This document shows positions 4,396 through 26,564 of a stretch of DNA of 64,000 nt, piece by piece. The DNA is taken from NCBI GenBank assembly GCA_028716045.1, contig JAQUQO010000001.1, forward strand, positions 862,343-926,342, written 5' to 3'. The DNA comes from Patescibacteria group bacterium. GTDB lineage: Bacteria > Patescibacteriota > Patescibacteriia > JAQUQO01. A program made the position numbers and the translations under genes. Under the pieces are notes generated by a model. The model made no database searches and was not told the DNA's origin. It worked only from the letters and a program-made list of their open reading frames with translations. Positions within the stretch are counted from its first letter, which is position 1; each line of letters begins with the position of its first letter.

Positions 4396-6405
4396 TTAAA
4401 AGTTTAAATTTTTTTTGGTTTTTATGTACCACTTCTCTATCTTAGCGAAACGGTCAGAGGGTATAGTCAAACGATTAGCAACTATTCCTTTAATTTTTTT
4501 ATCCATGACATACGTATAGGTCGGGGAATAAAGGAAAATAGCCGGCAGTTCTTTGCTCATAATATCCTGAAACTCTTTGTATTTTTTGCTACGCTCTTCG
4601 GTGTTGATAGTTTGCCGGGCGTCTTCTAAAAGTTCGTCAATGTGGCGATTGACAAAAATGGCTAAATTGAGTCCGGGGTGAGAATTTTGTGAAGAATGCC
4701 AGAAAGGATAGGGGTCGGGGTCGGAACCGACGATTTCCGAATATAATAAAATTTCGTAATCTCTGTTTTTAATTGTTTCGCGGCGGATATCGGCGGGCGG
4801 AACAATAATCAGATTAACTTTAATGCCAATTTCCTGCCAGTAATTTTTTATCAGTTCCGCGGCTTTGACATTTTCCGCTTGGTTGACGGTGGTTAAATTT
4901 AAAGCTAAGATTTCCCCGCTTTTTTTCCGGAAAAAGTTTTGACCCTTGTCAATTTCGTTGTTAATTTTTTCACTGATAATTTCAGCGGGATCTTTAGTTT
5001 CCGGATTATTTTCCACCGCCGGTAAATTGTTTTCCCCCGCAGCGGCAGCCGGAGGGGTGCTCGTTGGTTGTTTGGCTTTTTCTTCCTCAAGTTTTTTCAG
5101 TTCTTCGGCCAGGCGATTATTTATATAATCTTCAATAGGTAGGATTTCCCATTTTAATTCGTCAAGAATTTTATTAGCCTCGGATAAATTAAGGTCATAT
5201 TTTTCCGTTTCATTGGTATAGCCAAGATAGCCCGGGAGAATGGGCCCGTCAATTACTACTCCTTCCCCGCCCAGTATTTCTTCTAAAATTTTCTGCCGGT
5301 CCAAACTCAGAGCCAGCGCTTTCCTTAAATTTTTATCCTTAAGGACATCCTTTTTTGACTGATTGAAAAAAAGAGCGGTGTATTGAGGTATTTGTAGGGA
5401 ATAATAGACCAGACCTTTGTTTTTTTCCACCACAGATTTCAATTCCCGGGGCAGAAAATTTACACCTTCGGTATTTTTATTGCGCAAGGCCTCAACGGCG
5501 CTGTTAAAATCAGGATAAAATTTGAAGTTAATTTTTTCTATAAAGGGTCGTCCCAAATAATAATTTTCGTTGCGCGATAGACGATAGGATTTTATGTTGC
5601 CCAGCCGATCTTTGGTCAAGCTTTCAAATCTAAAGGGGCCAGACCCTATTGGTTTTAGGTTGTATTCCGCCAAGTGAATGTTGGCCGGGGGAATCTCGCC
5701 CCAAATATGCCTTGGCAAGATGCCAAAAGTAAGAATTTCAATGAACGGTGCGTAAGGTTCTTCAAGAGAAAAAGAAATCTTATAGTCATCAATTTTAGAA
5801 ACAGTTACTCCGCGAAAGCTCGGCGCGAGCGGACTGCGATATTCTGGGTCTTTAATGCTTTCCACCGTAAAAATAACATCATCGGCGGTAAAGGGGGCGC
5901 CATCATGCCACAAAACATTTTGTTTAAGATAAACAGTATAAACTTTTTGGTCCGCGGTTATTTCCCATTTTTCCGCCAGATCCAAAACTATTTCCTGGTT
6001 CTCGTTGTATTGCAGTAAGCTGGAAAAAATTAAACGGCTCAAATCGCGGTCAACCTCGCTGGTTTGCGCCAACACCGGATTAAGGTAGCGCGGTGTTCCC
6101 ACTAAACCCTCAGTATATTCGCCCCCGTAGGAAGGGGAATAGGTCACCCGCTCCTTGTAAGTCATCCAGCCCAAAATTCCTAAGGCCAGTACCGCTGTTG
6201 CCAAAACAATTTTTATCAGTAAATTTTCAGTGGGGCCGAGAAATTTAGGAAGGTGTTTTAGCTGTTTAAAACTGGGAATACGCGATTTTGACAAAGACAA
6301 AACCAGCTTTTTGTCTAAATCCGCTTGTTTGACAAAAGGCCGAGGATTGTTATTTTTTTGGACTTCGTCATTTTTGGAACGACGAAAAAAATCTTGAAAT
6401 TTCAC
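4396..6405 (-). CDS. ABC transporter substrate-binding protein, family 5 (peptide/nickel type), membrane-anchored
   Basis: 669 aa. N-terminal TM helix. SBP_bac_5-like core. Pro/Ala/Glu low-complexity insert. Confidence 0.65.
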   Translation of the reverse strand: MKFQDFFRRSKNDEVQKNNNPRPFVKQADLDKKLVLSLSKSRIPSFKQLKHLPKFLGPTENLLIKIVLATAVLALGILGWMTYKERVTYSPSYGGEYTEGLVGTPRYLNPVLAQTSEVDRDLSRLIFSSLLQYNENQEIVLDLAEKWEITADQKVYTVYLKQNVLWHDGAPFTADDVIFTVESIKDPEYRSPLAPSFRGVTVSKIDDYKISFSLEEPYAPFIEILTFGILPRHIWGEIPPANIHLAEYNLKPIGSGPFRFESLTKDRLGNIKSYRLSRNENYYLGRPFIEKINFKFYPDFNSAVEALRNKNTEGVNFLPRELKSVVEKNKGLVYYSLQIPQYTALFFNQSKKDVLKDKNLRKALALSLDRQKILEEILGGEGVVIDGPILPGYLGYTNETEKYDLNLSEANKILDELKWEILPIEDYINNRLAEELKKLEEEKAKQPTSTPPAAAAGENNLPAVENNPETKDPAEIISEKINNEIDKGQNFFRKKSGEILALNLTTVNQAENVKAAELIKNYWQEIGIKVNLIIVPPADIRRETIKNRDYEILLYSEIVGSDPDPYPFWHSSQNSHPGLNLAIFVNRHIDELLEDARQTINTEERSKKYKEFQDIMSKELPAIFLYSPTYTYVMDKKIKGIVANRLTIPSDRFAKIEKWYIKTKKNLNF

Positions 6406-6429
6406 AGCAGATTTAAATTAGCTCCGCCG

Positions 6430-6648
6430 TTATTTTTGGAGCACCAGCAAGAGAAGGGCTGTTCCTAAAAAGAGTATGGAGAAGATTATAGTTGAAATAA
6501 AAAGAGATTTCTCGATTCCTCTTTTGGTCCGGTAAACATTGCTTTCTCCCCCAAAAGCTGAACCCAGGCCAGTCCCTCGGCGCTGTAATAAAATCACAAT
6601 CATCAGCAGAACGGCGATAACGATTTGTAGAATAGTTAGATATTTCAT
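6430..6648 (-). CDS. secG: preprotein translocase subunit SecG
   Basis: 72 aa, two TM helices, LLQRRGTGLGSAFGG motif typical of SecG. Confidence 0.8.
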   Translation of the reverse strand: MKYLTILQIVIAVLLMIVILLQRRGTGLGSAFGGESNVYRTKRGIEKSLFISTIIFSILFLGTALLLLVLQK

Positions 6649-6787
6649 AGTATTTAAGAGTTTACCATCGGATTAGATAAATGTCAAGCGCTTTTATGGC
6701 GAAACTCATTTTGGCCGTTTTTTTAGGCCTTTATTTTCTAACCGTTATTTTAATGATATACTATTTATGTAGAAAACACAAAACATC

Positions 6788-7498
6788 ATGGCCTTGAGCA
6801 AAAAGATAGTAAAATTTTTTTTAATTATTCTTTTATCCCTACTGATATTAGCCGGGTTATTTTTTACGGGGATTTTTTATTTTAAATCGTTGAATGACGA
6901 TTTAAAATCAGGGGAAAATATTCCTTCGGCGCCGAGCGAGCTGTTTAATCCTCAATTATTATCTTTACGCTCTCAATTGGAAACCGCTGATGACCCGCGT
7001 TTAGGGCCGGACGATGCGCCAATTACTATTGTGCAGTTTATGGATTTCCGCTGTCCGGTTTGCGCCGAGGCCTTTCCAGTTTTGCGGGAGCTTAGTTATT
7101 TATATAAAGATAAGGTTAAATTTATTTTGCGTGATTATCCTTTAAAAGCCGAGGAGTCGTTAAATTTTGCTTTAGCCGGAAATTGCGCTCTGGAACAAAA
7201 AAAGTTTTGGCCGTTTCACGATAAGATGTTCCAGTATAAAGATAAGATTACTTTGGAAAATTTGTCTCAATACACCGAGCAGGCGGGCCTTAATAAAGAA
7301 AATTTTAGCGCCTGTCTAAATTCGGAAAGATATAAGAAAGAAGTTTATGACGATATTGCCGATGCCCAAGCGCTGGGAGTAAAGGGCACGCCCACTTGGT
7401 TTATTAATGGCTATAAATTTGAAGGAGCCGTCCCATTGGAACAATTTAAGGAAATTATCGGCGGCGTGTTGGAGAGAATGGAGACAGGCAGCAAATAG
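6788..7498 (+). CDS. DsbA-family thiol:disulfide oxidoreductase (thioredoxin fold)
   Basis: N-terminal TM helix, CPVC active-site motif, DsbA-like length. Confidence 0.75.
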   Translation: MALSKKIVKFFLIILLSLLILAGLFFTGIFYFKSLNDDLKSGENIPSAPSELFNPQLLSLRSQLETADDPRLGPDDAPITIVQFMDFRCPVCAEAFPVLRELSYLYKDKVKFILRDYPLKAEESLNFALAGNCALEQKKFWPFHDKMFQYKDKITLENLSQYTEQAGLNKENFSACLNSERYKKEVYDDIADAQALGVKGTPTWFINGYKFEGAVPLEQFKEIIGGVLERMETGSK

Positions 7499-11415: not shown

Positions 11416-11757
11416 TTATTTTAGAGGAGTTTCTTCCAGCTTTCTGACAAATCCCTTTTTCAAAAAGTTTAGTTTAGCTCGACGAACTTGCGCTTGTTTG
11501 ACTGGCTCAATTTTAACCAGCGTCGGCAAGTGGAGAGGAAAAATTTTTTCCACGCCAATCCCTTCGGAAATTTTTCTGACGGTGATGGTCCCGCCTTTTT
11601 CTTGGCCATGCTTTTTAGCGATTATCATTCCTTCAAAAATCTGGATGCGCTCTTTTTCTTCGCCCTTAGCGTTTAATTCTTTAATTTTTTGATGGACGCG
11701 CACGGTCATTCCCGGTTTTAATTCCGGCAATTTCATTTCGGTCTGTTGCTCGGTCAT
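11416..11757 (-). CDS. rplS: 50S ribosomal protein L19
   Basis: 113 aa. Typical L19 sequence and length. Confidence 0.9.
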   Translation of the reverse strand: MTEQQTEMKLPELKPGMTVRVHQKIKELNAKGEEKERIQIFEGMIIAKKHGQEKGGTITVRKISEGIGVEKIFPLHLPTLVKIEPVKQAQVRRAKLNFLKKGFVRKLEETPLK

Positions 11758-11829
11758 ATATGCTGATTATTATTTTTTAATACTTGTATTCGGTAGTTTA
11801 TTATAAGTATATAAATATGTCAAGATATA

Positions 11830-11855
11830 AAAACCCCGTTATTTAACGGGGTTTT
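11830..11855. terminator. intrinsic terminator AAAACCCCGTTA-TT-TAACGGGGTTTT
   Basis: Palindromic hairpin with flanking A-run and U-run. Downstream of minus-strand gene 11868-12293. Confidence 0.6.
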
Positions 11856-11867
11856 GGCGATTCTTCT

Positions 11868-12293
11868 TTAGGGCCTTCTTAATTGGGCCAATGTCTTTCT
11901 CATCTCCTCGGGAATAAAGGGGTGGTCAAACTCACAAATTTTCCATTCTTTGATTTCAAGACTTGGGAAATTATGAATTTTGTCGGGAGAAATGGCGCCG
12001 GGCGGGGTAAGGGAGTTCTCTAGGGATTTTGCTGACTTGAATAGTTTTTGAAATTCTTTCGGCGGTTTTTTATAAGAAGAGAAGGGTTTGATGTTATTTT
12101 CCAAATCCAAGAAAATTTCGGCGAGCAATACATGATAAATCATTTTTTGGGCTTCCGGCAAAGTTTTCCCTTGAGCCACCACATCGTATTCAAGGCACTG
12201 AGCGGAAAAAATGGTACTCCCGTCAGTAGTTTTGTTTTTAATAATCAAAATACTGACTACTATTTTTTGTATTTTTTGCTCTTTATTTTCCAT
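11868..12293 (-). CDS. hypothetical protein, possible HicB-like (RNase H-like fold) N-terminal domain
   Basis: 141 aa. FSAQCLEYDVVAQGKTLPEAQKMIYHVL resembles the HicB/UPF0150 pattern. No adjacent hicA-like ORF. Confidence 0.45.
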   Translation of the reverse strand: MENKEQKIQKIVVSILIIKNKTTDGSTIFSAQCLEYDVVAQGKTLPEAQKMIYHVLLAEIFLDLENNIKPFSSYKKPPKEFQKLFKSAKSLENSLTPPGAISPDKIHNFPSLEIKEWKICEFDHPFIPEEMRKTLAQLRRP

Positions 12294-12328
12294 CTTTTTA
12301 CCCTCCTTGGGTTGTAGTTGTAAATGAA

Positions 12329-12892
12329 CTATGGTTTGTTTAATTCTTTTCGTACTATTTTATATATTTTAGCAAATTTTTCTTCAGCTGACAAATTTGT
12401 GGAATCAATCACGTAATCGTAATGGCTTTTGTCGTAGGCGTCAAAACCATAGTATTGTTGGTAGCGTTTTTTGTCGCTGGCGATACGTTCTTGATTAAGC
12501 TGTAAAACATCCTCCACGCTTTTGGCGGTTTTGCCTTCATTGCGTTCCGCGTTTTGCCGGAGGTCCTGCCAGATTCTTTTCGCCCCTTCCATTTCTTCAA
12601 CATCAACAAAGATTTTTAGGGCCCGTGGTATGAAATAAAAACTCGTCCGCCCTTCAATGACAAAGTTATCCTGAGTTTCGCCGAGTTTTTTTTGCAACTC
12701 ATCCACTTCTTTATCGGTTGTCGGGTCGGTTTCTCCCAGTTTGTTATATTCTTCCAGAGTCAGCCCCCGTTTTTTAGCCGCTTCGCGCCTAAGCCCGCCC
12801 ATATAATAATGAGGCCAGCCGAGCTTTTTGGCCAATTGTTTAGCCACGGTGGATTTCCCCGAGCCGGGCATGCCGCCCAACACTATAATCAT
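12329..12892 (-). CDS. P-loop nucleotide kinase, cytidylate-kinase-like
   Basis: 187 aa. Walker A GGMPGSGKST at the N-terminus. Size and layout of the (d)CMP/adenylate kinase fold. Confidence 0.55.
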   Translation of the reverse strand: MIIVLGGMPGSGKSTVAKQLAKKLGWPHYYMGGLRREAAKKRGLTLEEYNKLGETDPTTDKEVDELQKKLGETQDNFVIEGRTSFYFIPRALKIFVDVEEMEGAKRIWQDLRQNAERNEGKTAKSVEDVLQLNQERIASDKKRYQQYYGFDAYDKSHYDYVIDSTNLSAEEKFAKIYKIVRKELNKP

Positions 12893-12896
12893 AAAA

Positions 12897-13826
12897 TTAT
12901 TTTAAAATTTTAAGGATATAATTTAATTCTTGGGGCAATGGGGACGAGAATTCTTTCCAGTCATTATTCAAATCACGCCAACCCAAAAGGGAAGCGTGCA
13001 AAAAAACTCTTCGGCAGGCGACCGTTTCTTTTAATTTTTTTGTTTTATAGAGTTTGTCGCCGACAATCGGATGACCGATGGCTTTCAAGTGGACTCTGAT
13101 TTGGTGAGTGCGTCCGGTTAGCAATTTTATTTTTAACAAGCTAAAATGGGTAAACTTTTTTATAATCTCATATTCAGTTAAGGCCTCTTTGCCCTCGACA
13201 TTTTTGGGCCTGGCTGCCATGAGCCCCCGGCCGGTTCTGGCAATGGGAAAATCAATTACTCCTTCGTTTTTGGGCGGGTGGCCATAAACCAAGGCCGTGT
13301 ACTCCTTTTTTATTGTTCTTTCCCGAAACTGTTTTTTGAGCGATTCAAATCCCGCTTCCGAGCGAGCAATAATTAACAAACCAGAAACGTCTTTATCTAT
13401 CCTATGGACGATTCCCGGCCGAGCGGGGTCAGCGCCGATTTTTGCTACTTCCGGATATTTTTTTATAACTTCATCAATGAGTGTGTTATTTTTATGAACA
13501 TTATCAGGATGAACAACCAGCCCCGCTGGCTTATCAACCACGATGAAATTTTTATCGGCGAACACCACGGGAATGTTTAAGTCACGGTTTTTTCCAATGT
13601 CAGAAGAGGACCTCTTCTCTTTATTTTTTATTTTTTTAACAGTAATAACGTCGCCATCTTTTAAAAAGGCATGGACTTTGGCCGGCCGGTTATTTACCAA
13701 AACCGTCTCTGATTTAATTATTTTTTGGATTTGCGCGCGCGATAAATCATTAAGTTTGGCGGTGAGCCATTTGTCCAGTCGTTCTCCGGAGGTAGTACTG
13801 TCAATTTTAAATTCCCGAATAGCCAT
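12897..13826 (-). CDS. rluD: RluA-family 23S rRNA pseudouridine synthase (RluD-like, N-terminal S4 domain)
   Basis: 309 aa. HRIDKDVSGLLIIAR catalytic motif. S4-like N-terminus. Confidence 0.75.
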   Translation of the reverse strand: MAIREFKIDSTTSGERLDKWLTAKLNDLSRAQIQKIIKSETVLVNNRPAKVHAFLKDGDVITVKKIKNKEKRSSSDIGKNRDLNIPVVFADKNFIVVDKPAGLVVHPDNVHKNNTLIDEVIKKYPEVAKIGADPARPGIVHRIDKDVSGLLIIARSEAGFESLKKQFRERTIKKEYTALVYGHPPKNEGVIDFPIARTGRGLMAARPKNVEGKEALTEYEIIKKFTHFSLLKIKLLTGRTHQIRVHLKAIGHPIVGDKLYKTKKLKETVACRRVFLHASLLGWRDLNNDWKEFSSPLPQELNYILKILK

Positions 13827-13828
13827 AA

Positions 13829-15334
13829 TTATTCCACTTCTTCGTATTTTTTAAAAAATGCTTCCTTGTTTTTCTTTTCGTATTCGCCTAGATTCGGCTC
13901 CAGCTTTTTTAAATCCTCGCCCGGCAGTTTATTTAATTCCCCGGCTCTCTGTTCCAGATATTTTTTAGTATTTTTTTTCTTGTCTTCCAGAACTTCTCCC
14001 AGCAGGGCTTTCAGCAGAAAACCAATACGCGGCCCCGGCGGCATTTTAAAAATTTTCATTAAATCATTACCGTCAATTTTAAGCATGGAAGTGGTAATGG
14101 CGTCCATTTGCACTTCCTGTATTTTTCGTTCCAACACCTGAAGTTTCCAGGGCTTGGCTTTGGGCCGACCCATGCCCAGCCGGTCGCAGATGCGCAGGCG
14201 GATAAGGTCATTGACATTGTCTTTGCCGACGCGCGCCAGCAGACGGCGCACTCCGGCATCGGTCACCTCGCCCAAACTGTAGTAAAACATATGATGGCGG
14301 ACGAGATGAGAAATTTTTTCGGTCAGTTCGTTGGAATAGCGCAGGCGGTATAATATTTTTTTGGCAATTTTCGCGCCCACCAAATCGTGATTGAAAAAAG
14401 TGCTGGTTTTTCCCAGGCCCCTTTTGGTCTGCGGTTTGGCGATGTCATGGAGCAGGGCGGCCAGGCGGATTTCCAAATCGTAATTTCTTTCCGCGGCAAA
14501 ACCAAGTGATTTAGTCAGATGCTCAAAGACGGTATAAATGTGGCTGCGGTTTTGAGTTAACCCCACCCCCGCAGTCAGTTCCGGAATAAAAATTTTTAAC
14601 AGATTTAATTTGTATAAAAGATTCAGGCCTTCTTCGGCTTTGGCCGACATGATTATTTTAGTGAATTCATCGCGAATTCTCTCGGCGCTGATTTTTGAAA
14701 GTCCTGCGGCGTTTTTCTTTATCGCTTCCCAAGTATTTTTTTCAATCAGAAACCCCAGCTGGCAGGCCAGGCGCACGGCCCGCAACATTCTGGTGTAATC
14801 CTCGGCGAATCTTTCTTCCGGCTTGCCGACAGTGCGGATGATTTTTTCTCCCAAATCTTTTTCTCCTTCAAAGGAGTCAATTAATTTCTCCGTTGTGAGT
14901 TGTGAGTTGTGAGTTGTGAGTTTAAGCGCCATGGCATTAACTGTAAAATCGCGACGGGATAAATCTTCCTCAATAGACAGTTTGAAATTTGATTGCACGT
15001 CAAAATCTTTATATTTACCGGTGCCCCATGATTCTTCCGTGCGGGGTAAGGCGATATCAAACGGTTCTTTGATTTTTTTGTTCTTTGGCAGAAATTTAAA
15101 AACTCCGAATGCTCCCCCGACTAAATCCACCCGCCCCTCTTCGGCTAAAAATTTTTCCAGTTGTTCGGGCGCAACATTTCTGACCACAAAATCGTAGTCA
15201 TAAGTGGTTCGTCCTAAAAGCAAATCGCGTACCGCCCCGCCCACTAAAAAAATTTCCGCTTGAGGAAAAGACCTAAGCAATTTTTTTATCCAAGAAAACT
15301 CGGTATTTTTTAAAATTTTTTCCAGATTCTTCAT
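13829..15334 (-). CDS. cca: CCA-adding tRNA nucleotidyltransferase / poly(A) polymerase family with HD domain
   Basis: 501 aa. GGAVRDLLLG...DYDF head-domain motif. HD motif (LLHDIAK). Contains the in-frame 7-bp tandem repeat listed below. Confidence 0.8.
   Translation of the reverse strand: MKNLEKILKNTEFSWIKKLLRSFPQAEIFLVGGAVRDLLLGRTTYDYDFVVRNVAPEQLEKFLAEEGRVDLVGGAFGVFKFLPKNKKIKEPFDIALPRTEESWGTGKYKDFDVQSNFKLSIEEDLSRRDFTVNAMALKLTTHNSQLTTEKLIDSFEGEKDLGEKIIRTVGKPEERFAEDYTRMLRAVRLACQLGFLIEKNTWEAIKKNAAGLSKISAERIRDEFTKIIMSAKAEEGLNLLYKLNLLKIFIPELTAGVGLTQNRSHIYTVFEHLTKSLGFAAERNYDLEIRLAALLHDIAKPQTKRGLGKTSTFFNHDLVGAKIAKKILYRLRYSNELTEKISHLVRHHMFYYSLGEVTDAGVRRLLARVGKDNVNDLIRLRICDRLGMGRPKAKPWKLQVLERKIQEVQMDAITTSMLKIDGNDLMKIFKMPPGPRIGFLLKALLGEVLEDKKKNTKKYLEQRAGELNKLPGEDLKKLEPNLGEYEKKNKEAFFKKYEEVE
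14892..14922. repeat. (GTTGTGA)x4.4 perfect 7-bp tandem repeat inside the cca coding sequence
   Basis: Read directly. On the coding strand it encodes LTTHNSQLTT. The unit length is not a multiple of 3. Confidence 0.9.
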
Positions 15335-15392
15335 GTTTATATTGTAGCATAAAGCGGGGGCTAGGGTAACAAAAGGCGCGGGGATAGTGGTA

Positions 15393-15421
15393 TTGACAAA
15401 ATTTAAGTGGTATGTTAAGAT
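15393..15421 (+). promoter_or_regulatory. sigma70-like promoter TTGACA-N17-TAAGAT
   Basis: Consensus -35, 17-nt spacer, TAAGAT -10. This -10 recurs in several promoters in the window. Confidence 0.5.
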
Positions 15422-15427
15422 GGTTTG

Positions 15428-15558
15428 TTGTTCATTTAAAATCGGGATAGTGGGCCATTCGTGGTTTTAAATCCACGGAAGTCCTTTCCATAAGTACAGG
15501 GTAAAATTTGTTTTACCGGTTTTTGTATTATTCACCTTAATTAAAGGAGAAAAACACA
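15428..15558 (+). promoter_or_regulatory. structured ~130-nt 5' leader with two hairpins; the second is terminator-like and followed by a U-run (possible attenuator)
   Basis: Hairpins CGTGG-N9-CCACG (15460-15478) and GGTAAAA-TTTG-TTTTACC (15500-15517) followed by GGTTTTTG. SD AAAGGAG lies 9 nt before the ATG. Confidence 0.35.
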
Positions 15559-16239
15559 ATGGCAGAAAAGGCAAAGAAAAATCCGTTTTTGGTCTGCTCG
15601 TCCGACGAGAAATGTTTTCTCGTTGAGATAGAGGGTACCGAACGTCTTCTGATGGACCAGATGACAGGAGAAGAGATTGTCGAGACATTGATTCGTCGCA
15701 AAAGGCAGCAAGCTAAGACGGACGTCTCCCTTGAAGATTTGGCATCCGAGTCAATTTACCGCGACGGAGAAAACAAAATTATTATCCCCGCGGTAAATCT
15801 GCTGTCTTGCCTCCGTGAGGCCGGCAAACAGATTCCTTGGGGAGCGACTTCAAGTAAAAAGAGAATCACCAAAGCCGACGGCACCACCATGCTTCACTCC
15901 TTTCTGAAAATCCCCGATGCCAACCTTATTCTTGAGCTTCCCGAAGAGGGAGTTAACAAGGAGGGCTGGGCTGTGGATGTGCGCAAGGGGAAGCTGAAAG
16001 ACGGCACAGCCGTAGGGATTGTCAGGCCCTTGTTTCGGGAATGGTCGTTTAAAGTCAAAATTTACATTGACTTTTATACCTCCGAAGTGACTCCCGAAAT
16101 GGTCGGCAAGCTTTTTTTCACGGCTGGCAAATCGGTCGGACTTTGTGCTTTCCGTCCGGCCTGCGGTGGTCCTTTTGGCACTTTCCACGTCAAAAGCTGG
16201 GAAGAGGTTAAGGCCCCTGCAGCTGAAGAAGCCGCGTAA
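15559..16239 (+). CDS. hypothetical protein, no family recognised; G+C-richer than its neighbours
   Basis: 226 aa. Own promoter and SD. Codon usage visibly richer in G/C-ending codons (CTC, GTC, GAC) than flanking genes. Gly/Cys-rich C-terminal segment GLCAFRPACGGPFGTF. Confidence 0.6.
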   Translation: MAEKAKKNPFLVCSSDEKCFLVEIEGTERLLMDQMTGEEIVETLIRRKRQQAKTDVSLEDLASESIYRDGENKIIIPAVNLLSCLREAGKQIPWGATSSKKRITKADGTTMLHSFLKIPDANLILELPEEGVNKEGWAVDVRKGKLKDGTAVGIVRPLFREWSFKVKIYIDFYTSEVTPEMVGKLFFTAGKSVGLCAFRPACGGPFGTFHVKSWEEVKAPAAEEAA

Positions 16240-16258
16240 AAAGTTGCGTAATGAATTT

Positions 16259-16286
16259 GGGATAGGGTTAAAATTTAACCCTATCC
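16259..16286 (+). other. perfect 13-bp stem-loop GGATAGGGTTAAA/TTTAACCCTATCC just after the stop codon; no U-run, so not a terminator
   Basis: Read directly in the 3' UTR of gene 15559-16239. Confidence 0.5.
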
Positions 16287-16374
16287 AACCGATTGTTATG
16301 GTTTTCGTTTATTCTCAGTGCGTTATTGTTCAGTAGACCAAAGCCTCGTAAGGTGGTGTAACCTACCGCAGCTC

Positions 16375-16412
16375 GGGGCAAGGTCCATTAAGACCTTGCC
16401 TTTTTCTTTTTT
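16375..16412 (+). terminator. intrinsic terminator, copy A of the locus-specific hairpin family (GGGGCAAGGTCCATTAAGACCTTGCC + U-run)
   Basis: Stem-loop plus TTTTTCTTTTTT. Ends the 3' UTR / sRNA-1 of gene 15559. Confidence 0.65.
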
Positions 16413-16436
16413 GCACCCCCCTTGTCATTTAATTTA

Positions 16437-16464
16437 TTTAAAGTTAACAGATTTTTTGTAATAT
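16437..16464 (+). promoter_or_regulatory. candidate promoter TTTAAA-N16-TAATAT (TG immediately upstream of the -10)
   Basis: Motif spacing read directly. Weaker -35 than the other promoters. Confidence 0.35.
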
Positions 16465-16470
16465 AGCTAT

Positions 16471-16630
16471 CTTTTGTGCCGCGTTTTTCACTTGTGCAGC
16501 GTGTTGTCTGGCGTAGCAATCCAGAGCTCAGCACACTTTACAGCCCTAAAGTTTCGTAGAGTAAAGTCTTGCCCCCCACCGTTCAGTTCGCCACAGGGCA
16601 GAGTCCATTGAGACCCTGCCTTTTTTATTT
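16471..16630 (+). ncRNA. putative small RNA unit 2 (~155 nt), ends in terminator copy B
   Basis: No ORF. Bounded by promoter and terminator. Shares the motifs GCGTAGC...CCAGAGC...AGCACA...CAGGGCAG with unit 3b. Confidence 0.4.
16594..16630 (+). terminator. intrinsic terminator, copy B (CAGGGCAGAGTCCATTGAGACCCTGCC + T6)
   Basis: Near-identical to copies C and D. Confidence 0.65.
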
Positions 16631-16688
16631 CCTTTAACTAAGCCCCTGACACGCCCCAATGCTTGGCATCGGGGCACTCCAAAAGTGC

Positions 16689-16717
16689 TTGACAAGTTTT
16701 ATGCTGTTTGTTAAGAT
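16689..16717 (+). promoter_or_regulatory. sigma70-like promoter TTGACA-N17-TAAGAT
   Basis: Consensus -35 and 17-nt spacer. Same -10 as the promoter of gene 15559. Confidence 0.55.
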
Positions 16718-16723
16718 TTTTTG

Positions 16724-16856
16724 TTGAGTAATAATATATAGTTATAAAATGCTTTGTGATCTGCTGTGTTGTTCACCCCGACTTTCTTGGGTTCAGTAAA
16801 GCATAGCGAATTAATGTAGAGCATAGGGCCTCGAATTTTCGGGGCCACTTTTTTTA
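16724..16856 (+). ncRNA. putative small RNA unit 3a (~130 nt) with its own distinct terminator
   Basis: Promoter upstream. Terminator GGCCTCGAA-TTT-TCGGGGCC + T7 at 16826-16856. Body motif AGCATAGCGAATTAATGTAGAGCATAGGGCC is related to units 2 and 3b. Confidence 0.4.
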
Positions 16857-16870
16857 AAACACCGTATTTA

Positions 16871-16899
16871 TTGACAAAAGATGATTTCCATGCTAATAT
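16871..16899 (+). promoter_or_regulatory. sigma70-like promoter TTGACA-N17-TAATAT
   Basis: Consensus spacing. Confidence 0.55.
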
Positions 16900-16905
16900 A
16901 TATTT

Positions 16906-17016
16906 TATATAAGAGTAGCGCTTAGTTTCATTTAGTTAGGCACTGCGTAGCGCATTAAATTTCAGAGCATTGTAGCACAGGGCAGGGTCCAGTGAGATTC
17001 TGCCATTTTTATTTTT
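16906..17016 (+). ncRNA. putative small RNA unit 3b (~105 nt), ends in terminator copy C
   Basis: GTAGCGC...GCGTAGCGCATTAAATTTCAGAGCATTGTAGCACAGGGCAGGGTCC is paralogous to unit 2. Confidence 0.4.
16978..17016 (+). terminator. intrinsic terminator, copy C (CAGGGCAGGGTCCAGTGAGATTCTGCC + U-run)
   Basis: Covarying stem changes relative to copies B and D preserve base pairing. Confidence 0.65.
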
Positions 17017-17020
17017 GCTA

Positions 17021-17049
17021 TTGACAAAAATCAGAGTTTATATTAGAAT
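17021..17049 (+). promoter_or_regulatory. sigma70-like promoter TTGACA-N17-TAGAAT for the helicase gene
   Basis: Consensus spacing. SD AAGGAAA precedes the ATG at 17103. Confidence 0.6.
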
Positions 17050-17063
17050 ATAAAGATTTTTGA

Positions 17064-18923
17064 TTGTTTAAGATTAAACGTTCTTTGAGAAAGGAAATTA
17101 AAATGAATGTAGCAGTAAAGGATTTTTTAAAGCATTTTCCCCATGAAAAGATGAGGGATACACAGGAAAAGGCGTTAGAGAAAGTTGCTAGCTCAGAAAA
17201 GGGCGTAATTCTTGAAATGCCAACCGGTTCCGGTAAAACGGCGGTCGGCATAACTGTTCTTAAGACGATGGCTAAAAAAGGGAGTAAAGGTCTTTTTTAT
17301 ATTACTCCCACCAAAACTTTAGTTGACCAAATACGGCGTCTTTTCCCAAATGATGTGACAGTTATTCTTGGTCGGGCGGAGTATCAGTGCCTTTATTACA
17401 GTTCGCAAGGAATTCTCGGGATAAATGCCGAAGAATCTCCTTGCTATATGCTGAAGTGTCCACATCGCGTTGACCAAGAGACGGGTAAGGTTTGCGAAAG
17501 CGGCGTTGAACCGTGTCCTTATTTCAAAGCCAAGCATGAAGCCAAAAAACGGGCAGAGGAAGGTGGAATTGTTCTTTGCACGACCGCTTTTTTCCTTAAA
17601 AACAGGTTGACGGTAGAGGGTTGGCGTGATAACAAACCGGATGCGGTCGTTATTGATGAAGTGCATCGGTTGGCCAAAATTGCAAGGGATATTTTTTCTT
17701 ACACTCTTACCGATTATCATCTTGGGAGAGTTGCTAAATTGGTAGCGGAGTTTGACGAGAAACAAGCTGAGATTATCAAAAAGTTTAATGGGCGTTTTAG
17801 GCAGATTGCCCGGCGAAGAATATCTTGCAAGCCGTCCCTTTTGAAAATAGAAGAAGTCGAGAGCTTGATCAAGATAATGGAAAATATAGATGACCAATAT
17901 CTTGAGAAAAAAATTAGGGAAGCGGTAGATGCCGGCAAAATTAATCCCGTGGAGCAGAAAGGCGACCTTAAAACATTGGAGAATTTTATTACCAATATAC
18001 CTCGACTTATCCGGTCTCTTTGTTATGCGACTGATTTGGAAAAAGAAAATCCGCTTAATTACGTTGTCGCCTTTTATTACACAAAGGACGACCCGGAATT
18101 TGCTGGCACCAAAAGAAAGGCAAGATATTTTCTTACCATCAAAAGCTATTTTGTTATTCCGATTATCAGGCGGGTGCTTGGCAAAAAGGTAATTGCCTAT
18201 TCCGCTACTATCGGCGATAGTAGAATATTCAGTTTTGAGACGGGGATCAAGTTGCCCTTCTTTAGCTTTCCCTCTATGTTCCCCATAGAGCAGGCCAAGA
18301 TTTTTATGCCGACAGATACAAAAAATTTGGCGGTAAGCAGAAGAAGAAGGGGCGACCTGAGCAAGAGTCTGCGTCTGGTAGTGGAAACATCTTTGCTTTT
18401 TGCCAAGAAGGGCTGTCGTTCTTTGGTGGTAGTGGTTTCAGAGGAAGAACGGCAGAAGTTTTTACAGATTGCGGGCGAAAAAGGGTTGGAGGCGATAAGC
18501 TATGGGAATGGGATAAAGCCCAGAGAAGCGGCCGCTAAATTTTCCCGCGGAGAGGGGCAAGTTCTTGTGGGAACCGCTGCCAACTATTCCGAGGGTGTTG
18601 ATTTCCCCAAAAAACTTGCGCCGGTGATTTTTTTCTTACGACCCGGTTATCAACGTCCTGATGACCCGGAAACCCAGTTTGAAGAAAGACGGTTTACCAA
18701 CGGTCAGGTCTGGGCATTAAGAAATTGGCGGGTGATGTTAGAGGCGTTGCAGGTTCGGGGCCGCAATATTCGCGGCGCTGAAGATATTGGGGTGTGTTTC
18801 TTTATATCCCAGCAGTTCCGCAATTTCCTTTATACTTCTATGCCGGAGTGGTTAAAACCAGCTTACTCGGGGCAACTGACAATGGAGGGGGCAGTGAAGG
18901 AGGCGATGAAATTATTAAAGTGA
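17064..18923 (+). CDS. XPD/DinG-like superfamily-2 helicase with Fe-S (4-Cys) insertion
   Basis: Walker A MPTGSGKT. DEVH box (VVIDEVHRL). Cys cluster (CLYY...CYMLKCPH...CESGVEPCPY) between motifs I and II, as in XPD/DinG. C-terminal GTAANYSEGVDFP helicase_C_2-like motif. The likely true start is ATG 17103 (MNVAVKDFL), which has an SD. Confidence 0.7.
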   Translation: MFKIKRSLRKEIKMNVAVKDFLKHFPHEKMRDTQEKALEKVASSEKGVILEMPTGSGKTAVGITVLKTMAKKGSKGLFYITPTKTLVDQIRRLFPNDVTVILGRAEYQCLYYSSQGILGINAEESPCYMLKCPHRVDQETGKVCESGVEPCPYFKAKHEAKKRAEEGGIVLCTTAFFLKNRLTVEGWRDNKPDAVVIDEVHRLAKIARDIFSYTLTDYHLGRVAKLVAEFDEKQAEIIKKFNGRFRQIARRRISCKPSLLKIEEVESLIKIMENIDDQYLEKKIREAVDAGKINPVEQKGDLKTLENFITNIPRLIRSLCYATDLEKENPLNYVVAFYYTKDDPEFAGTKRKARYFLTIKSYFVIPIIRRVLGKKVIAYSATIGDSRIFSFETGIKLPFFSFPSMFPIEQAKIFMPTDTKNLAVSRRRRGDLSKSLRLVVETSLLFAKKGCRSLVVVVSEEERQKFLQIAGEKGLEAISYGNGIKPREAAAKFSRGEGQVLVGTAANYSEGVDFPKKLAPVIFFLRPGYQRPDDPETQFEERRFTNGQVWALRNWRVMLEALQVRGRNIRGAEDIGVCFFISQQFRNFLYTSMPEWLKPAYSGQLTMEGAVKEAMKLLK

Positions 18924-19031
18924 AACATTATAATAAATGTACAGTCCTTTATTGTAAATTACCGAACAGTATAGTGACGTTTAGTCTTCTGGCGTCACGT
19001 CGACTCGAGTCTTGAACACAACACTACTGTG

Positions 19032-19067
19032 CAGGGCAGGGTCCATTGAGACCCTGCCATTTTTTAT
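19032..19067 (+). terminator. intrinsic terminator, copy D (CAGGGCAGGGTCCATTGAGACCCTGCC + U-run), ~110 nt after the helicase stop
   Basis: Identical hairpin to copy B apart from one stem base. Confidence 0.65.
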
Positions 19068-19076
19068 CAAATCCAA

Positions 19077-19108
19077 CCTCTCCCGACAAATATCGGAGAG
19101 GTTTTTTT
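19077..19108. terminator. second hairpin CCTCTCCCGA-CAAATA-TCGGAGAGG + T7, bidirectional (serves the convergent M23 gene)
   Basis: Stem-loop read directly. Confidence 0.55.
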
Positions 19109-19133
19109 ATTTTCCCGGATAAATATAAAGCGA

Positions 19134-20456
19134 TTATTTTATATATAACAGCGGGTTCATTTTGCGCCCGTTGATGATTACTTCAAAGTGAATATGCGTG
19201 CCGGTGGAGCGTCCGGTGGTTCCCATCATAGCAATAGTTTCCCCGCGGCTGACTTGTTGGCCTCTTTTTACAAAAAGTTTGCTGGCATGGCCGTAGCGGG
19301 TTTTGACTCCATTCCCATGATTGATTAATATTTGCAACCCATATCCGCCCAGCCACCCCGCGGATTCCACCGTCCCACTTTCGGCGGCATAGAGCGGCGA
19401 GCGGTAGTCGCCGTCAATATCAAGACCGCTGTGACGCCAGCTGTAATATTGAGTGATGACACGCCAGCTGGTCGGCCAAAGCATTTTGCCGCTGGCAATT
19501 TGCGTCGACCCGGGCGGTTTCACGGCGCTTTTATCAACCGGACTCCAGGTTCTGGCAGGGGCGCTATAAACAGGAATAATCTTGCCGTCAGGCACCATTA
19601 AAATATCTCCGGTGGCGATGTCACTGGTATCAGTCAGTTTATTGAAAGCAATAATTTTTTCTTCGGTAGAACCGTATTGTTTGGCGATTTTCGCGACCGT
19701 ATCGCCCTTTTTGACTTTGTGCTCCACGCCGTCAGCCGGCAGAATTTTTAATTTGTCGCCCGGCCGGATGTAGCTGTAAGCGCTTAGGTTATTCGCCCAA
19801 AGCATAGTATTCACCGCCAAGCTGAACTTTTCCGCGATACTGGAAATAGTATCATTTTGCTCAACGATATATTCAACCGTTTCGGTGCGGGTTTTTAAGC
19901 CGAGTTTGGTGTTGGAGATATTGGTTCGGACAAGGGCAGTGTCTCCTTGGGCGGTTGGCAAATCACTTTCTTCCTCGGTGACATCTTCAATTAAATAAGG
20001 GACCGGCCGGAGAGTACTCTGAATGCCGCGCGAACTATCCAAGTAGCTCAAGAGTTTGTCTTCTTTTTCCGGTATGGCGCTTTCCTTTTCTACTATCGGG
20101 CCTTCTTCAATGGTGTAATTATAACTCAGGTCGTCTTTGACCATAGAATAAAGAATGCTCTTTTCTCCGAAATCTTCCCGGCGGGTTTCTTGGGCGTTGA
20201 GATTGTCAAAAGTTATTAAAGCGACGATGGCGATGATGACTACGTAGACAGCGTATTGATTGGTAAAGACGGAAAGAAATTTATTTTGCTGATAAACAAA
20301 AATTTTTTGCAGGAACCTTTTTATGGTTAGATAAGTTTTATAAAACGAAATTATCGCTGGCCGTCCGAGAAATTTCCAGGTTTGTCCTGCCAGCCAAGCT
20401 AAGAGCGGTTTTAGATTTTTTCTAAGAAAATTAAAAAATCTGCCAAAATAAATCAA
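19134..20456 (-). CDS. LysM-domain M23 family metallopeptidase (peptidoglycan hydrolase)
   Basis: 440 aa. N-terminal TM helix. Two LysM-like segments. C-terminal M23 motifs HSGLDIDG...HLHFEV-type (HIHFEV). Confidence 0.85.
   Translation of the reverse strand: MIYFGRFFNFLRKNLKPLLAWLAGQTWKFLGRPAIISFYKTYLTIKRFLQKIFVYQQNKFLSVFTNQYAVYVVIIAIVALITFDNLNAQETRREDFGEKSILYSMVKDDLSYNYTIEEGPIVEKESAIPEKEDKLLSYLDSSRGIQSTLRPVPYLIEDVTEEESDLPTAQGDTALVRTNISNTKLGLKTRTETVEYIVEQNDTISSIAEKFSLAVNTMLWANNLSAYSYIRPGDKLKILPADGVEHKVKKGDTVAKIAKQYGSTEEKIIAFNKLTDTSDIATGDILMVPDGKIIPVYSAPARTWSPVDKSAVKPPGSTQIASGKMLWPTSWRVITQYYSWRHSGLDIDGDYRSPLYAAESGTVESAGWLGGYGLQILINHGNGVKTRYGHASKLFVKRGQQVSRGETIAMMGTTGRSTGTHIHFEVIINGRKMNPLLYIK

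Positions 20457-25803: not shown

Positions 25804-25815
<12 letters not shown>
25485..25815 (+). mobile_element. putative mini insertion (~295 bp) carrying a GIY-YIG ORF, bounded by 18-19 bp direct repeats TATTAAGCGGTAGTAGTT equal to the 5' end of tRNA-Gly
   Basis: DR copies at 25485-25502 and 25798-25815. The left copy continues as a degenerate tRNA-Gly 5' half (D-arm TTGGTAGAACG retained, anticodon arm replaced by palindrome CCCCGCCATGGCGGGG). Confidence 0.35.
25562..25810 (+). CDS. GIY-YIG nuclease-domain protein (YhbQ/UPF0213-like)
   Basis: 82 aa. FVYILQS...YYIGSTNDLSRRLEEHN matches the GIY-YIG motif. The stop codon lies inside the first bases of tRNA-Gly. Confidence 0.7.
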
Positions 25816-25876
<61 letters not shown>

Positions 25877-25968
25877 CAAAGAAAAAATTATTGTATTTGG
25901 GTTTTGAAAATGTAAATTTTTTCAGAACGGACCACCCGTTTTTTATTTTTGTCGTGCGGGTTTTGGGT

Positions 25969-25989
25969 GACCCCGCCTTGGCGGGGGAA
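25969..25989 (+). repeat. 21-bp hairpin element GACCCCGCCTTGGCGGGGGAA (exact second copy at 33358-33378; related palindrome at 25537-25552)
   Basis: Exact string match seen twice. Lies immediately 5' of tRNA-Leu(TAA). Confidence 0.8.
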
Positions 25990-25996
25990 CCGAAAG

Positions 25997-26084
25997 GCCG
26001 AGGTGGTGAAATAGGTAGACACGCGAGACTTAAAATCTCGTGGATGAATAATCCGTGCGGGTTCGATTCCCGCCCTCGGCACCA
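25997..26084 (+). tRNA. tRNA-Leu(TAA), CCA encoded
   Basis: GCCGAGG acceptor stem, anticodon loop CTTAAAA, long variable arm, GGTTCGATTCC T-arm, ...CACCA 3' end. Confidence 0.85.
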
Positions 26085-26085
26085 A

Positions 26086-26174
26086 GACAACCAACAACAG
26101 AACAACAGAACAACTGACAACCCAGAACATTCTATCTCGTTGTTAGTTATTGGTTGTAGGTTGTCAGTTCCTTT
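26086..26174 (+). repeat. ~90-nt tRNA-Lys leader, copy 1 (CAACCAACAACAGAAC...GGTTGTAGGTTGTCAGTTCC), with internal inverted repeats
   Basis: Near-identical to 26401-26489. Copy 1 has an extra CAGAACAA duplication. Confidence 0.8.
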
Positions 26175-26250
26175 GCGCCGTTAGCTCAGCTGGTAGAGCA
26201 ACTGCCTTTTAAGCAGAAGGTCACAGGTTCAAATCCTGTACGGCGTACCA
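26175..26250 (+). tRNA. tRNA-Lys(TTT), CCA encoded
   Basis: GCGCCGTTAGCTCAGCTGGTAGAGC, anticodon loop CTTTTAA, T-arm GGTTCAAATCC. Confidence 0.85.
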
Positions 26251-26312
26251 GAGCGGACATCTTCGAACGTTCGTAAATTATTTTTTATTAGTGTAGTGAA
26301 AAGAAAAATTTT

Positions 26313-26399
26313 GGGTCGGTACCAAAGCGGTCAACTGGGGCAGACTGTAAATCTGCTGGCCTTGTGCCTTCGTTGGTTCGAATCCAGCCCGACCCACCA
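26313..26399 (+). tRNA. tRNA-Tyr(GTA), long variable arm, CCA encoded
   Basis: GGGTCGG acceptor stem, anticodon loop CTGTAAA, GGTTCGAATCC T-arm. Confidence 0.85.
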
Positions 26400-26400
26400 A

Positions 26401-26489
26401 GATAACAAGACAACCAACAACAGAACAACTGACAACCCAGAACATTCTATCTCGTTGTTGGTTATTGGTTGTAGGTTGTCAGTTCCTTT
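26401..26489 (+). repeat. tRNA-Lys leader, copy 2
   Basis: Segmental duplicate of 26086-26174. Confidence 0.8.
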
Positions 26490-26564
26490 GCGCCGTTAGC
26501 TCAGCTGGTAGAGCAGTTGCCTCTTAAGCAAACGGTCGCAGGTTCAAATCCTGCACGGCGCACC
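26490..26564 (+). tRNA. tRNA-Lys(CTT)
   Basis: Same body as Lys(TTT) but anticodon loop CTCTTAA. 3' end ACC (CCA not fully encoded). Confidence 0.85.

Follow-up and report, generated by a model that had tools for sequence, protein, structure and literature searches.

A probable VIPR locus with an XPD-type helicase gene on a Patescibacteria chromosome

Results

Layout of the locus

We analyzed a stretch of 64,000 nucleotides (nt) from the chromosome of a Patescibacteria group bacterium (contig JAQUQO010000001.1, positions 862,343 to 926,342 of the forward strand), here called the window; all coordinates count from its first letter unless a different locus is named. Positions 15393-19066 of the plus strand hold a gene for a protein of 226 amino acids (aa), a gene for an XPD/Rad3-type helicase, and five short units in which a tract of degenerate pentanucleotide repeats is followed by a hairpin and a T-run (Table 1). 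Very likely, this segment is a single VIPR (Viral Interference Programmable Repeat) locus, composed of vipr, which codes for a minimal Cas7-like RAMP protein, of five vrRNA genes, and of the helicase gene as an accessory (vap) gene. Since VIPR as a kind of system was described in preprints of 2026 (bioRxiv), the window locus is a further instance of it.

The original prediction had drawn attention to the gap between the two protein genes (16240-17016), where it saw a tandem family of putative small RNAs (guide-like, regulatory or decoy), each running from promoter to terminator, rather than spacer DNA. The anatomy of the gap agrees with this description in its guide-like form, but the kind of system is not new, as it matches VIPR. 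Segment 16240-17063 contains no open reading frame of at least 60 aa, and two frames overlap its edges (63 aa at 16145-16336, and 77 aa at 17018-17251 on the minus strand). The limits of the feature were drawn too narrowly. What had been taken for the 3' untranslated regions of mere protein genes on either side are two further vrRNA units, and vipr and the helicase gene are parts of the same system.

Table 1. Coordinates of genes, vrRNA units and promoter-like sites at the VIPR locus of the window
Feature	Position	Strand	Remarks
Promoter-like site of vipr	15393-15421	+	TG-extended TTGACA-N17-TAAGAT upstream of vipr; member of the local TATTGACAAAA family of promoter-like repeats (D2)
vipr	15559-16239	+	226-aa Vipr-family RAMP (Cas7-like); G-loop GLCAFRPACGGPFG
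vrRNA unit 1	16265-16410	+	vipr 3' region; about 22 pentamers (16265-16374), hairpin 16376-16400, T-run
Promoter-like site of unit 2	16437-16464	+	Weak; TTTAAA-N16-TAATAT; read in the sequence, under the scan threshold
vrRNA unit 2	16468-16630	+	25 pentamers (16468-16592), linker ACA, hairpin 16596-16620, T-run
Promoter-like site of unit 3	16689-16717	+	TTGACA-N17-TAAGAT; 10/12, TG before -10
vrRNA unit 3	16718-16856	+	About 19-21 pentamers (16718-16822), linker ATA, variant hairpin 16826-16846, T-run
Promoter-like site of unit 4	16871-16899	+	TTGACA-N17-TAATAT; 10/12, TG before -10
vrRNA unit 4	16902-17014	+	13-15 pentamers (16902-16976), linker ACA, hairpin 16980-17004, T-run
Promoter-like site of helicase gene	17021-17049	+	TTGACA-N17-TAGAAT; 11/12
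vap helicase	17103-18923	+	606-aa XPD/Rad3/DinG-family superfamily 2 helicase
Promoter-like site of unit 5	18906-18934	+	ATGAAA-N17-TATAAT; overlaps the helicase stop codon
vrRNA unit 5	18936-19066	+	3' of helicase; about 19 pentamers (18936-19030), linker GCA, hairpin 19034-19058, T-run

Pentamer tracts form the bodies of the vrRNA units

The vrRNA bodies are tracts of 13-25 degenerate pentanucleotide repeats with the consensus NN-H-G-Y. Three of the five tracts lie in the 16240-17016 gap, and one follows each of the flanking genes. Pentamers were counted back from the tail hairpin, and tracts were scored for a Y at position 5 plus a G at position 4, with 2000 dinucleotide-preserving shuffles per unit as control. 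In the best register, Y occupied position 5 in 24/27, 24/25, 19/21, 13/15 and 16/21 pentamers of units 1 to 5, respectively. Each unit had a single register with the position-5 pyrimidine; the other registers mostly contained about 25-55% Y, and one out-of-phase register in vrRNA 2 and one in vrRNA 4 attained 72-73%. The z values for period 5 were 5.8, 7.6, 6.9, 4.8 and 6.4 for units 1 to 5, and the observed score was reached by 0/2000 shuffles. Because the regions 3' of both flanking genes score as tracts, we count five vrRNA units, not three.

Over 109 pentamers, positions 1 and 2 were near-random (entropy 1.91 and 1.97 bits), position 3 was rich in A/T and depleted of G (9/109 pentamers), position 4 was G in 56%, and position 5 was Y in 88%. 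When both strands of the 64 kb were scanned for period 5, the scan returned 16315-16389, 16498-16572, 16748-16822, 16912-16986 and 18936-19010 on the plus strand and no other plus-strand match; on the minus strand, a single borderline window (19016-19090) scored 22/30, exactly the cut-off, and overlaps the vrRNA 5 tail hairpin. No period-5 signal that would point to a further vrRNA unit was seen in the leaders of vipr (15428-15556) and of the helicase gene, or in the DNA past unit 5. The tandem repeat finder TRF (min_score 30) did not detect the tracts.

These results change the meaning of the likeness among the bodies. The three strings quoted from them in the original prediction are all found in the stretch, and a common scaffold does relate the bodies to each other. 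However, they are not diverged paralogous sequences but tandem NN-H-G-Y pentamers, and strings such as GCGTAGC... and AGCATAGCG... are the recurring A-G-Y scaffold. The likeness is thus that of a common 5-nt periodic scaffold, not ordinary paralogy.

We also observed a perfect 12-bp hairpin (GGATAGGGTTAA / TTAACCCTATCC) at 16260-16286 on the plus strand, 20 nt past the stop codon of vipr. No T-run accompanies this hairpin, which lies within the Y-phased tract of unit 1. This hairpin could stabilize the 3' end of the mRNA, or could be a processing mark that parts the vipr mRNA from vrRNA 1.

Tail hairpins and promoter-like sites

A hairpin of the pattern GGGCAG(G/A)GTCCA(T/G)TGAGAYYCTGCC (up to 3 mismatches allowed) occurs at 16376, 16596, 16980 and 19034, always on the plus strand, and nowhere else in the 64 kb; the pattern had 0 matches in 100 shuffles. 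The earlier observation of one hairpin common to the units and to the 3' regions of both flanking genes is therefore borne out, with four copies found at this locus only. A T-run lies 3' of all four copies (repeat family D1). The terminators assigned to the units were also recovered. A terminator scan listed sites at 16375-16402, 16827-16846 and 16981-17004, and the hairpin at 16596-16620 with its T-run, not listed by that scan, was found in addition.

Unit 3 had been thought to end in a different terminator. Its tail, GGGCCTCGA/TCGGGGCC (16826-16846), has a GGGC-initiated stem that starts 3 nt past the last pentamer, and is a variant of the common tail design. The linker between tract and hairpin is 3 nt long (ACA, GCA or ATA) in 4/5 units and 1 nt long in unit 1. 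In the predicted minimum-energy folds, the tail hairpin is present in all five units. The claim that stem differences between copies are compensatory holds for one change. Among nine stem pairs, six are invariant and one has truly changed on both sides, from G-C to A-U, in copy 1; two others are G-U wobbles in copy 3, and copy 2 contains an A-C mismatch.

Promoter-like sites were judged by their match to a sigma-70-like consensus (score of 12). The sites at 16437, 16689 and 16871 that had been described before are all present, and those of vipr, of the helicase gene and of unit 5 add to them. The -10 elements of units 2 to 5, with their ends at 16464, 16717, 16899 and 18934, stop 1-3 nt short of the tracts, which begin at 16468, 16718, 16902 and 18936. 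Unit 4 is about 107 nt long when counted from its inferred start. For unit 1, no promoter of its own was found.

Each unit taken by itself resembles an ordinary sigma-70-like promoter with an intrinsic terminator, and promoter-like sites of this style exist elsewhere in the window (TTGACAAAAT at about 22713). The units might on these grounds be independent regulatory small RNAs, or terminators and promoters stacked in a spacer, with the hairpin as a locally duplicated generic terminator. We regard this as extremely improbable. The 5-nt periodicity of the five bodies is unexpected for generic small RNAs or spacer DNA, the hairpin is limited to the vipr locus within the 64-kb window and not used as a general terminator, and the same architecture recurs beside Vipr homologs in unrelated genomes (see below).

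The 226-aa protein is a Vipr homolog

Simple searches were uninformative about the 226-aa protein. It had no match in Pfam, NCBIfam or PADLOC, a word-indexed search returned only the protein itself, and a single-protein Vipr search of viral contigs gave no relatives. Its NCBI nr entry is PHD51_03285, which comes from a Patescibacteria metagenome-assembled genome. More sensitive comparisons were productive. Along its full length, the protein matched phrog_4652, a phage family (E = 1.6e-14), and an exhaustive HMMER search yielded 780 representative Vipr homologs of about 190-250 aa. A profile of 80 homologs hit one entry in the PDB, 36pp_D, the "SUSP1 Vipr protein" (E = 8.1e-13, residues 1-192 of 202); the window protein as a single sequence reached E = 0.12 only, whereas hhalign aligned it to SUSP1 Vipr with 97.3% probability (E = 2.4e-11, 174 columns).

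The AlphaFold2 model (pLDDT 93.6, pTM 0.88) gave Csm3, Cmr4, and the Cas7 proteins of types VII and III-D as top Foldseek matches in the PDB (probability 1.00, TM 0.45-0.55). Two glycines of the G-loop, G194 and G207, are invariant in the family. In a beta-hairpin (residues 137-159), R156 is aligned with R138 of the SUSP1 thumb; the hairpin is likely to be the thumb as judged by alignment rather than superposition. On these profile comparisons and on the predicted structure, the 226-aa protein is a member of the Vipr family with a Cas7-like RAMP fold.

In SUSP1 Vipr, G1 of the GGY motif is read by H17 and D177, G2 by R138 and W178, and Y3 by R179 among others (10.64898/2026.04.26.720927). According to the hhalign alignment, SUSP1 residues H17, D177, R138, W178 and R179 correspond to D33, A197, R156, F198 and R199 in the window protein. 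Hence, the readers of G2 and Y3 are kept, with W replaced by F at one position, and both G1 readers are substituted. The substitutions agree with the repeats, in which G-Y is kept and G is depleted at the position of G1. This suggests that the clade of the window protein and of three related loci described below (L006-L008) anchors two bases per repeat, not three.

The two closest Vipr homologs (39-44% identity) are encoded on short contigs, each with a second gene directly adjoining vipr. On contig L001 (1-459 and 675-1391), this neighbor is a second vipr paralog according to tblastn; on contig P0003, it codes for a 237-aa protein whose family is not known.

The helicase and its genomic association with vipr

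Pfam assigns Helicase_C_2, ResIII, DEAD and DEAD_2 domains to the helicase. The best PADLOC model is typeIV_DinG, matched over the full length (2.6e-48). Among PDB chains, the helicase resembles XPD-family helicases, best an archaeal one (Thermoplasma XPD, 2.7e-14), and no CasDinG chain was among the matches. In XPD, the 4Fe-4S domain sits between Walker A and DEVH. A cysteine cluster is present at this place in the window helicase, between Walker A (PTGSGKT) and DEVH. Homologs at 45-60% identity number in the hundreds, and the named ones are nearly all from Patescibacteria.

We sampled five loci with helicase homologs (L006-L010), three of which (L006-L008) were also checked for direct repeats. 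The outcome agrees with the synteny to an XPD/DinG-type helicase that the original prediction had proposed to look for: in four of the five loci (L006-L009), a vipr-family gene lies on the same strand as the helicase gene (hmmsearch 8e-44 to 8e-80), together with many period-5 tracts on the vipr strand on both sides of the helicase. The helicases of the four loci are 49-60% identical to that of the window, and three come from Patescibacteria-labelled genomes. Surrounding genes differ from locus to locus (LigT, L19, PheRS/HicAB, ThrRS/ArgRS), which is why we consider vipr, vrRNAs and helicase a conserved module.

The RNA units recur as well. In L006, L007 and L008, GC-rich hairpins that are particular to each locus recur 3-8 times, and TTGACAAAA promoter-like sites are also repeated in L006. 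The repeats of these three loci have G at position 3 in 8-24%, G at position 4 in 46-73%, and Y at position 5 in 92-96%. At the junction between tract and tail, 3 nt (ACA, GCA, GTA, CTA or ATA) separate the last pentamer from a stem starting with G(G/A)GC. This register is found in 4/5 window units, in 3/3 copies of the main L007 tail family, in 7/7 copies of L008 type D3, and in 3/3 copies of L006 type D2; different registers are seen in the second tail types of L007 and of L008 and in the remaining hairpin families of L006. The exact tail hairpin pattern of the window had 0 matches in GTDB representative genomes and 0 in JGI metagenomes. A tail position that is kept across genomes with differing stems argues more strongly for a functional tail than do the four copies of the window.

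Some of these arrays are large. In L008 (4300-9900), we found at least 17 period-5 windows with two alternating tail types, and in L009 (2850-4820), about 2.3 kb of tracts between vipr and helicase; the five-unit array of the window is small next to them.

Four further Vipr homologs are encoded on phage-like contigs (L002-L005) with an integrase, helix-turn-helix regulators and many small open reading frames. Their strongest NNxGY period-5 windows are directly downstream of vipr, and sometimes also just upstream. On one of these contigs (L003, 11320-12453), an IS605 OrfB/TnpB (Cas12f-like) gene lies about 5 kb from vipr.

The absence of the helicase from these phage-type loci is one of several observations that fit a narrower VIPR locus of vipr and vrRNAs only, beside a housekeeping XPD/DinG repair helicase. 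Among Patescibacteria, close homologs of the helicase (45-60% identity) are met very often, the helicase is conserved at 54-60% across loci against 31-38% for Vipr, and the fifth sampled locus, L010, has a helicase homolog (5001-6827, 54% identity) without vipr or pentamer tracts within 5 kb, so that the helicase family is not exclusively or obligately linked to VIPR. We nevertheless judge a mere neighbor to be quite improbable. Four of the five homologs adjoin a same-strand vipr although the surrounding genes are wholly different, vrRNA units flank the helicase on both sides in the window and in L006-L009 so that the helicase stands inside the array, and helicases are named among the vap genes in the description of VIPR (10.64898/2026.04.26.720920). 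We therefore continue to treat the helicase gene as the vap gene of the locus.

Screens for other systems and genomic setting

Neither TRF nor a repeat search of the window revealed a CRISPR-like array. Only the helicase matched a CRISPR-associated PADLOC model, and the locus has one RAMP gene only. A remnant of a type IV CRISPR system was considered and ruled out, as an array and further Csf genes are both absent. Rfam, applied to the whole window at gathering thresholds, detected only tRNAs, and an E-value scan of 15300-19200 returned only a chance-level rli37 match (21.9 bits against a gathering score of 90); no Rfam match to a known housekeeping RNA was obtained for the units.

According to Pfam, the genes around the vipr locus are housekeeping genes (CCA-adding enzyme, RluD-like synthase, L19, H+-PPase). 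A cluster of L19, nucleotide-kinase and RluD-like pseudouridine synthase genes at 11416-15334 on the minus strand has a similar counterpart in L007 (8063-10147, minus strand), again beside a VIPR-helicase module. The two clusters, which belong to two different Patescibacteria genomes, are on opposite sides of the module. This adjacency hints that the module has long been resident in the chromosome and was rearranged locally, rather than inserted recently.

Directly 3' of the unit 5 tail, a second hairpin (CCTCTCCCGA / TCGGAGAGG, 19077-19101) has T-runs on both sides. It probably serves as a bidirectional terminator, used also by the convergent M23/LysM peptidase gene (19134-20456, minus strand). 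Further downstream, the window contains a cluster of five tRNA genes on the plus strand (25804-26564; Gly-GCC, Leu-TAA, Lys-TTT, Tyr-GTA, Lys-CTT).

Target searches and weight of the evidence

The class of targets, we infer, is phage or other mobile DNA. For the searches of IMG/VR, six exact patterns were used: xNN patterns on the last 10 repeats of vrRNAs 2, 3, 4 and 5, and contiguous NNN patterns on vrRNAs 2 and 4. In metagenomes, the xNN pattern of vrRNA 4 found an identical 29-nt sequence in three contigs (L011 8500-8528, L012 5755-5783, L013 4509-4537). [quoted passage not shown]

Several results weigh against the assignment of the locus to VIPR, and they are best considered together. The 29-nt match was rejected as a target, as one independent match is about what chance would give for 20 specified bases in such a collection. 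The six patterns had 0 matches in IMG/VR, and within the window, none of seven skip rules gave targets above order-shuffled controls. Covariation of the tail within the locus is not significant, since 235/500 shuffles did as well with four copies. The helicase homolog of L010, with neither vipr nor tracts nearby, also belongs here. Finally, compared with the canonical GGY, the repeats have a weaker consensus, and the tracts are longer, at 13-25 repeats, than the published 9-16. We note that NN-H-G-Y in tandem equals the YNNNG class of the preprint.

The degenerate consensus, together with the A-C mismatch in one tail and the two G-U pairs in another, could also mean that the locus is a decayed, non-functional relic of a VIPR system. 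This is highly improbable, because both the vipr and the helicase reading frames are intact and full length in comparison with their families, promoter-like sites match 10-11 of 12 positions, all five tails fold as predicted, and the Y phase is kept in 88% of the 109 pentamers.

The failure to find a viral target in IMG/VR and the setting amid housekeeping genes, rather than in a prophage or defense island, raise a different point. As L007 is likewise located beside the L19-kinase-pseudouridine synthase cluster, the system may have been domesticated to regulate genes of the bacterium itself or of its host instead of acting against phages. We consider domestication rather unlikely. No self-target was found in the 64 kb, which make up 7% of the roughly 928-kb contig, and the lack of viral matches counts for little, because phages of Candidate Phyla Radiation (CPR) bacteria are sparse in the collections that were searched. 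A VIPR locus presumably directed at mobile DNA is the reading that we retain.

Discussion

Comparison with characterized VIPR systems

The characterized examples of VIPR are the type II system of Escherichia phage SUSP1 and a system of a Pseudomonas fulva prophage (10.64898/2026.04.26.720920, 10.64898/2026.04.26.720927). A VIPR locus consists of vipr, coding for a RAMP of about 20 kDa, and one vap gene, without a CRISPR array; its vrRNAs are about 100 nt long, lie in the flanking intergenic DNA upstream and downstream, and combine 9-16 YNNGG repeats with an invariant structured 3' tail (10.64898/2026.04.26.720920). In the Vipr filament, there is one protomer per repeat, GGY is sequestered, NN is presented, and double-stranded DNA is read by skipping every third base (10.64898/2026.04.26.720920, 10.64898/2026.04.26.720927).

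The window locus has a Vipr protein with the RAMP hallmarks, vrRNA genes, a 3' tail and a minimal set of genes, and we assign it to VIPR because its anatomy agrees point by point with the published description. As marks of the system we took a Vipr homolog of about 20-25 kDa with a single RNA recognition motif, and a minimum of 4 tandem pentamers (YNNGG, NNNGG, YNNNG or NNNNG) between genes beside vipr. As in SUSP1 and P. fulva, there is a homologous single small RAMP, several vrRNA genes surround a two-gene operon, tandem pentamers alternate G-Y with variable bases and are followed by a structured 3' tail, and neither a CRISPR array nor other cas genes are present. It is possible that the vipr product, PHD51_03285, was already among the 2,664 PSI-BLAST hits of the preprint.

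Differences from the SUSP1 system are equally clear. The repeat is NN-H-G-Y instead of NN-G-G-Y, with D33/A197 in place of H17/D177, and tracts comprise 13-25 repeats against the published 9-16. The tail is a simple 9-bp hairpin with a U-run, similar to an intrinsic terminator, whereas the SUSP1 tail has a pseudoknot. Most window vrRNAs have a promoter-like site of their own. The vap gene codes for an XPD-type helicase, not for a DNA-binding protein, and the host DNA is a Patescibacteria chromosome amid housekeeping genes, not a phage.

The preprint distinguishes seven VIPR types, with NNNGG, YNNNG and NNNNG as alternative consensuses, and states that types III-V carry nuclease or helicase vap genes, nucleases being restricted to types III and V (10.64898/2026.04.26.720920). 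By elimination from these statements, the window locus is probably the helicase-associated "type IV". It would share with that type a two-gene locus of Vipr and helicase and a non-canonical pentamer consensus.

Comparison with CRISPR-Cas systems

The pairing of a RAMP-RNA filament with an XPD/DinG helicase, in the absence of a nuclease, is reminiscent of type IV-A CRISPR-Cas (Csf proteins with CasDinG). As in type IV-A, the outcome to be expected is likely to be interference by binding and unwinding, not by cleavage. Unlike type IV-A, the window locus lacks a CRISPR array, Cas6, Cas5 and Cas8-like subunits, and genes for adaptation, and its guides are not contiguous spacers. A further difference lies in the helicase, which keeps the cysteine cluster at the iron-sulfur (FeS) position of XPD and in PDB comparisons resembles the XPD family.

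With Csm3 and Cmr4, and with the Cas7 backbone of type III and type I systems in general, the window Vipr shares a predicted RNA recognition motif core, a thumb-like beta-hairpin and a G-loop, and one protomer would be expected per fixed RNA step. The step is 5 nt instead of 6, only one kind of subunit is present, and sequence identity is 10-15%.

A possible mechanism

Four of the vrRNAs would start within their first pentamer or two, from their own sigma-70-like promoter-like sites, and tail hairpin and U-run would act as an intrinsic terminator, giving a primary transcript of about 105-160 nt. This transcript may already be the mature guide, with no need for processing by a Cas6-like enzyme or a ribozyme. 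As no promoter of its own was found for unit 1, we propose that vrRNA 1 is made by read-through of the vipr mRNA. By homology to SUSP1, one Vipr protomer would bind per pentamer, sequestering the conserved G-Y and presenting the variable bases, and the tail would cap the filament. The filament would then read double-stranded DNA non-contiguously (according to the 1-nt-skip rule in SUSP1), and bound foreign DNA would be silenced or marked.

In a manner resembling CasDinG of type IV-A, the XPD-like helicase may be brought to the R-loop, and perhaps loads on the displaced strand. This step is speculative. An action on the bound target is proposed because of the CasDinG analogy and because vap1 of SUSP1 enhances protection (10.64898/2026.04.26.720920).

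Implications

VIPR is a very recent addition to RNA-guided DNA recognition, is minimal, has been proposed to be older than CRISPR, and has potential as a tool. The window locus is a clean and compact example of its helicase-associated branch in a CPR bacterium. Four of its features deserve attention: an apparently natural repeat code without G1, with predicted matching substitutions of the SUSP1 G1 contacts; what look like one promoter-like site and one terminator-tail per guide, with apparently no processing enzyme; a conserved XPD-like helicase partner, in parallel to CasDinG; and a chromosomal setting among housekeeping genes of a CPR bacterium. The locus also illustrates how VIPR arrays are missed by TRF, Rfam, Pfam and CRISPR-type repeat searches, while a simple period-5 G-Y scan detects them.

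It is conceivable, although on balance doubtful, that Patescibacteria carry a widespread chromosomal VIPR subtype characterized by two-base (G-Y) anchoring, self-contained guides and coupling to an FeS-type XPD helicase. If this is true, three bases of each pentamer would be free, and the read-out rule could differ from the NN, 1-nt-skip code. Such a subtype would be a functional, possibly evolutionary bridge between VIPR and type IV CRISPR-CasDinG, and these episymbionts with reduced genomes have perhaps domesticated it for purposes of the host.

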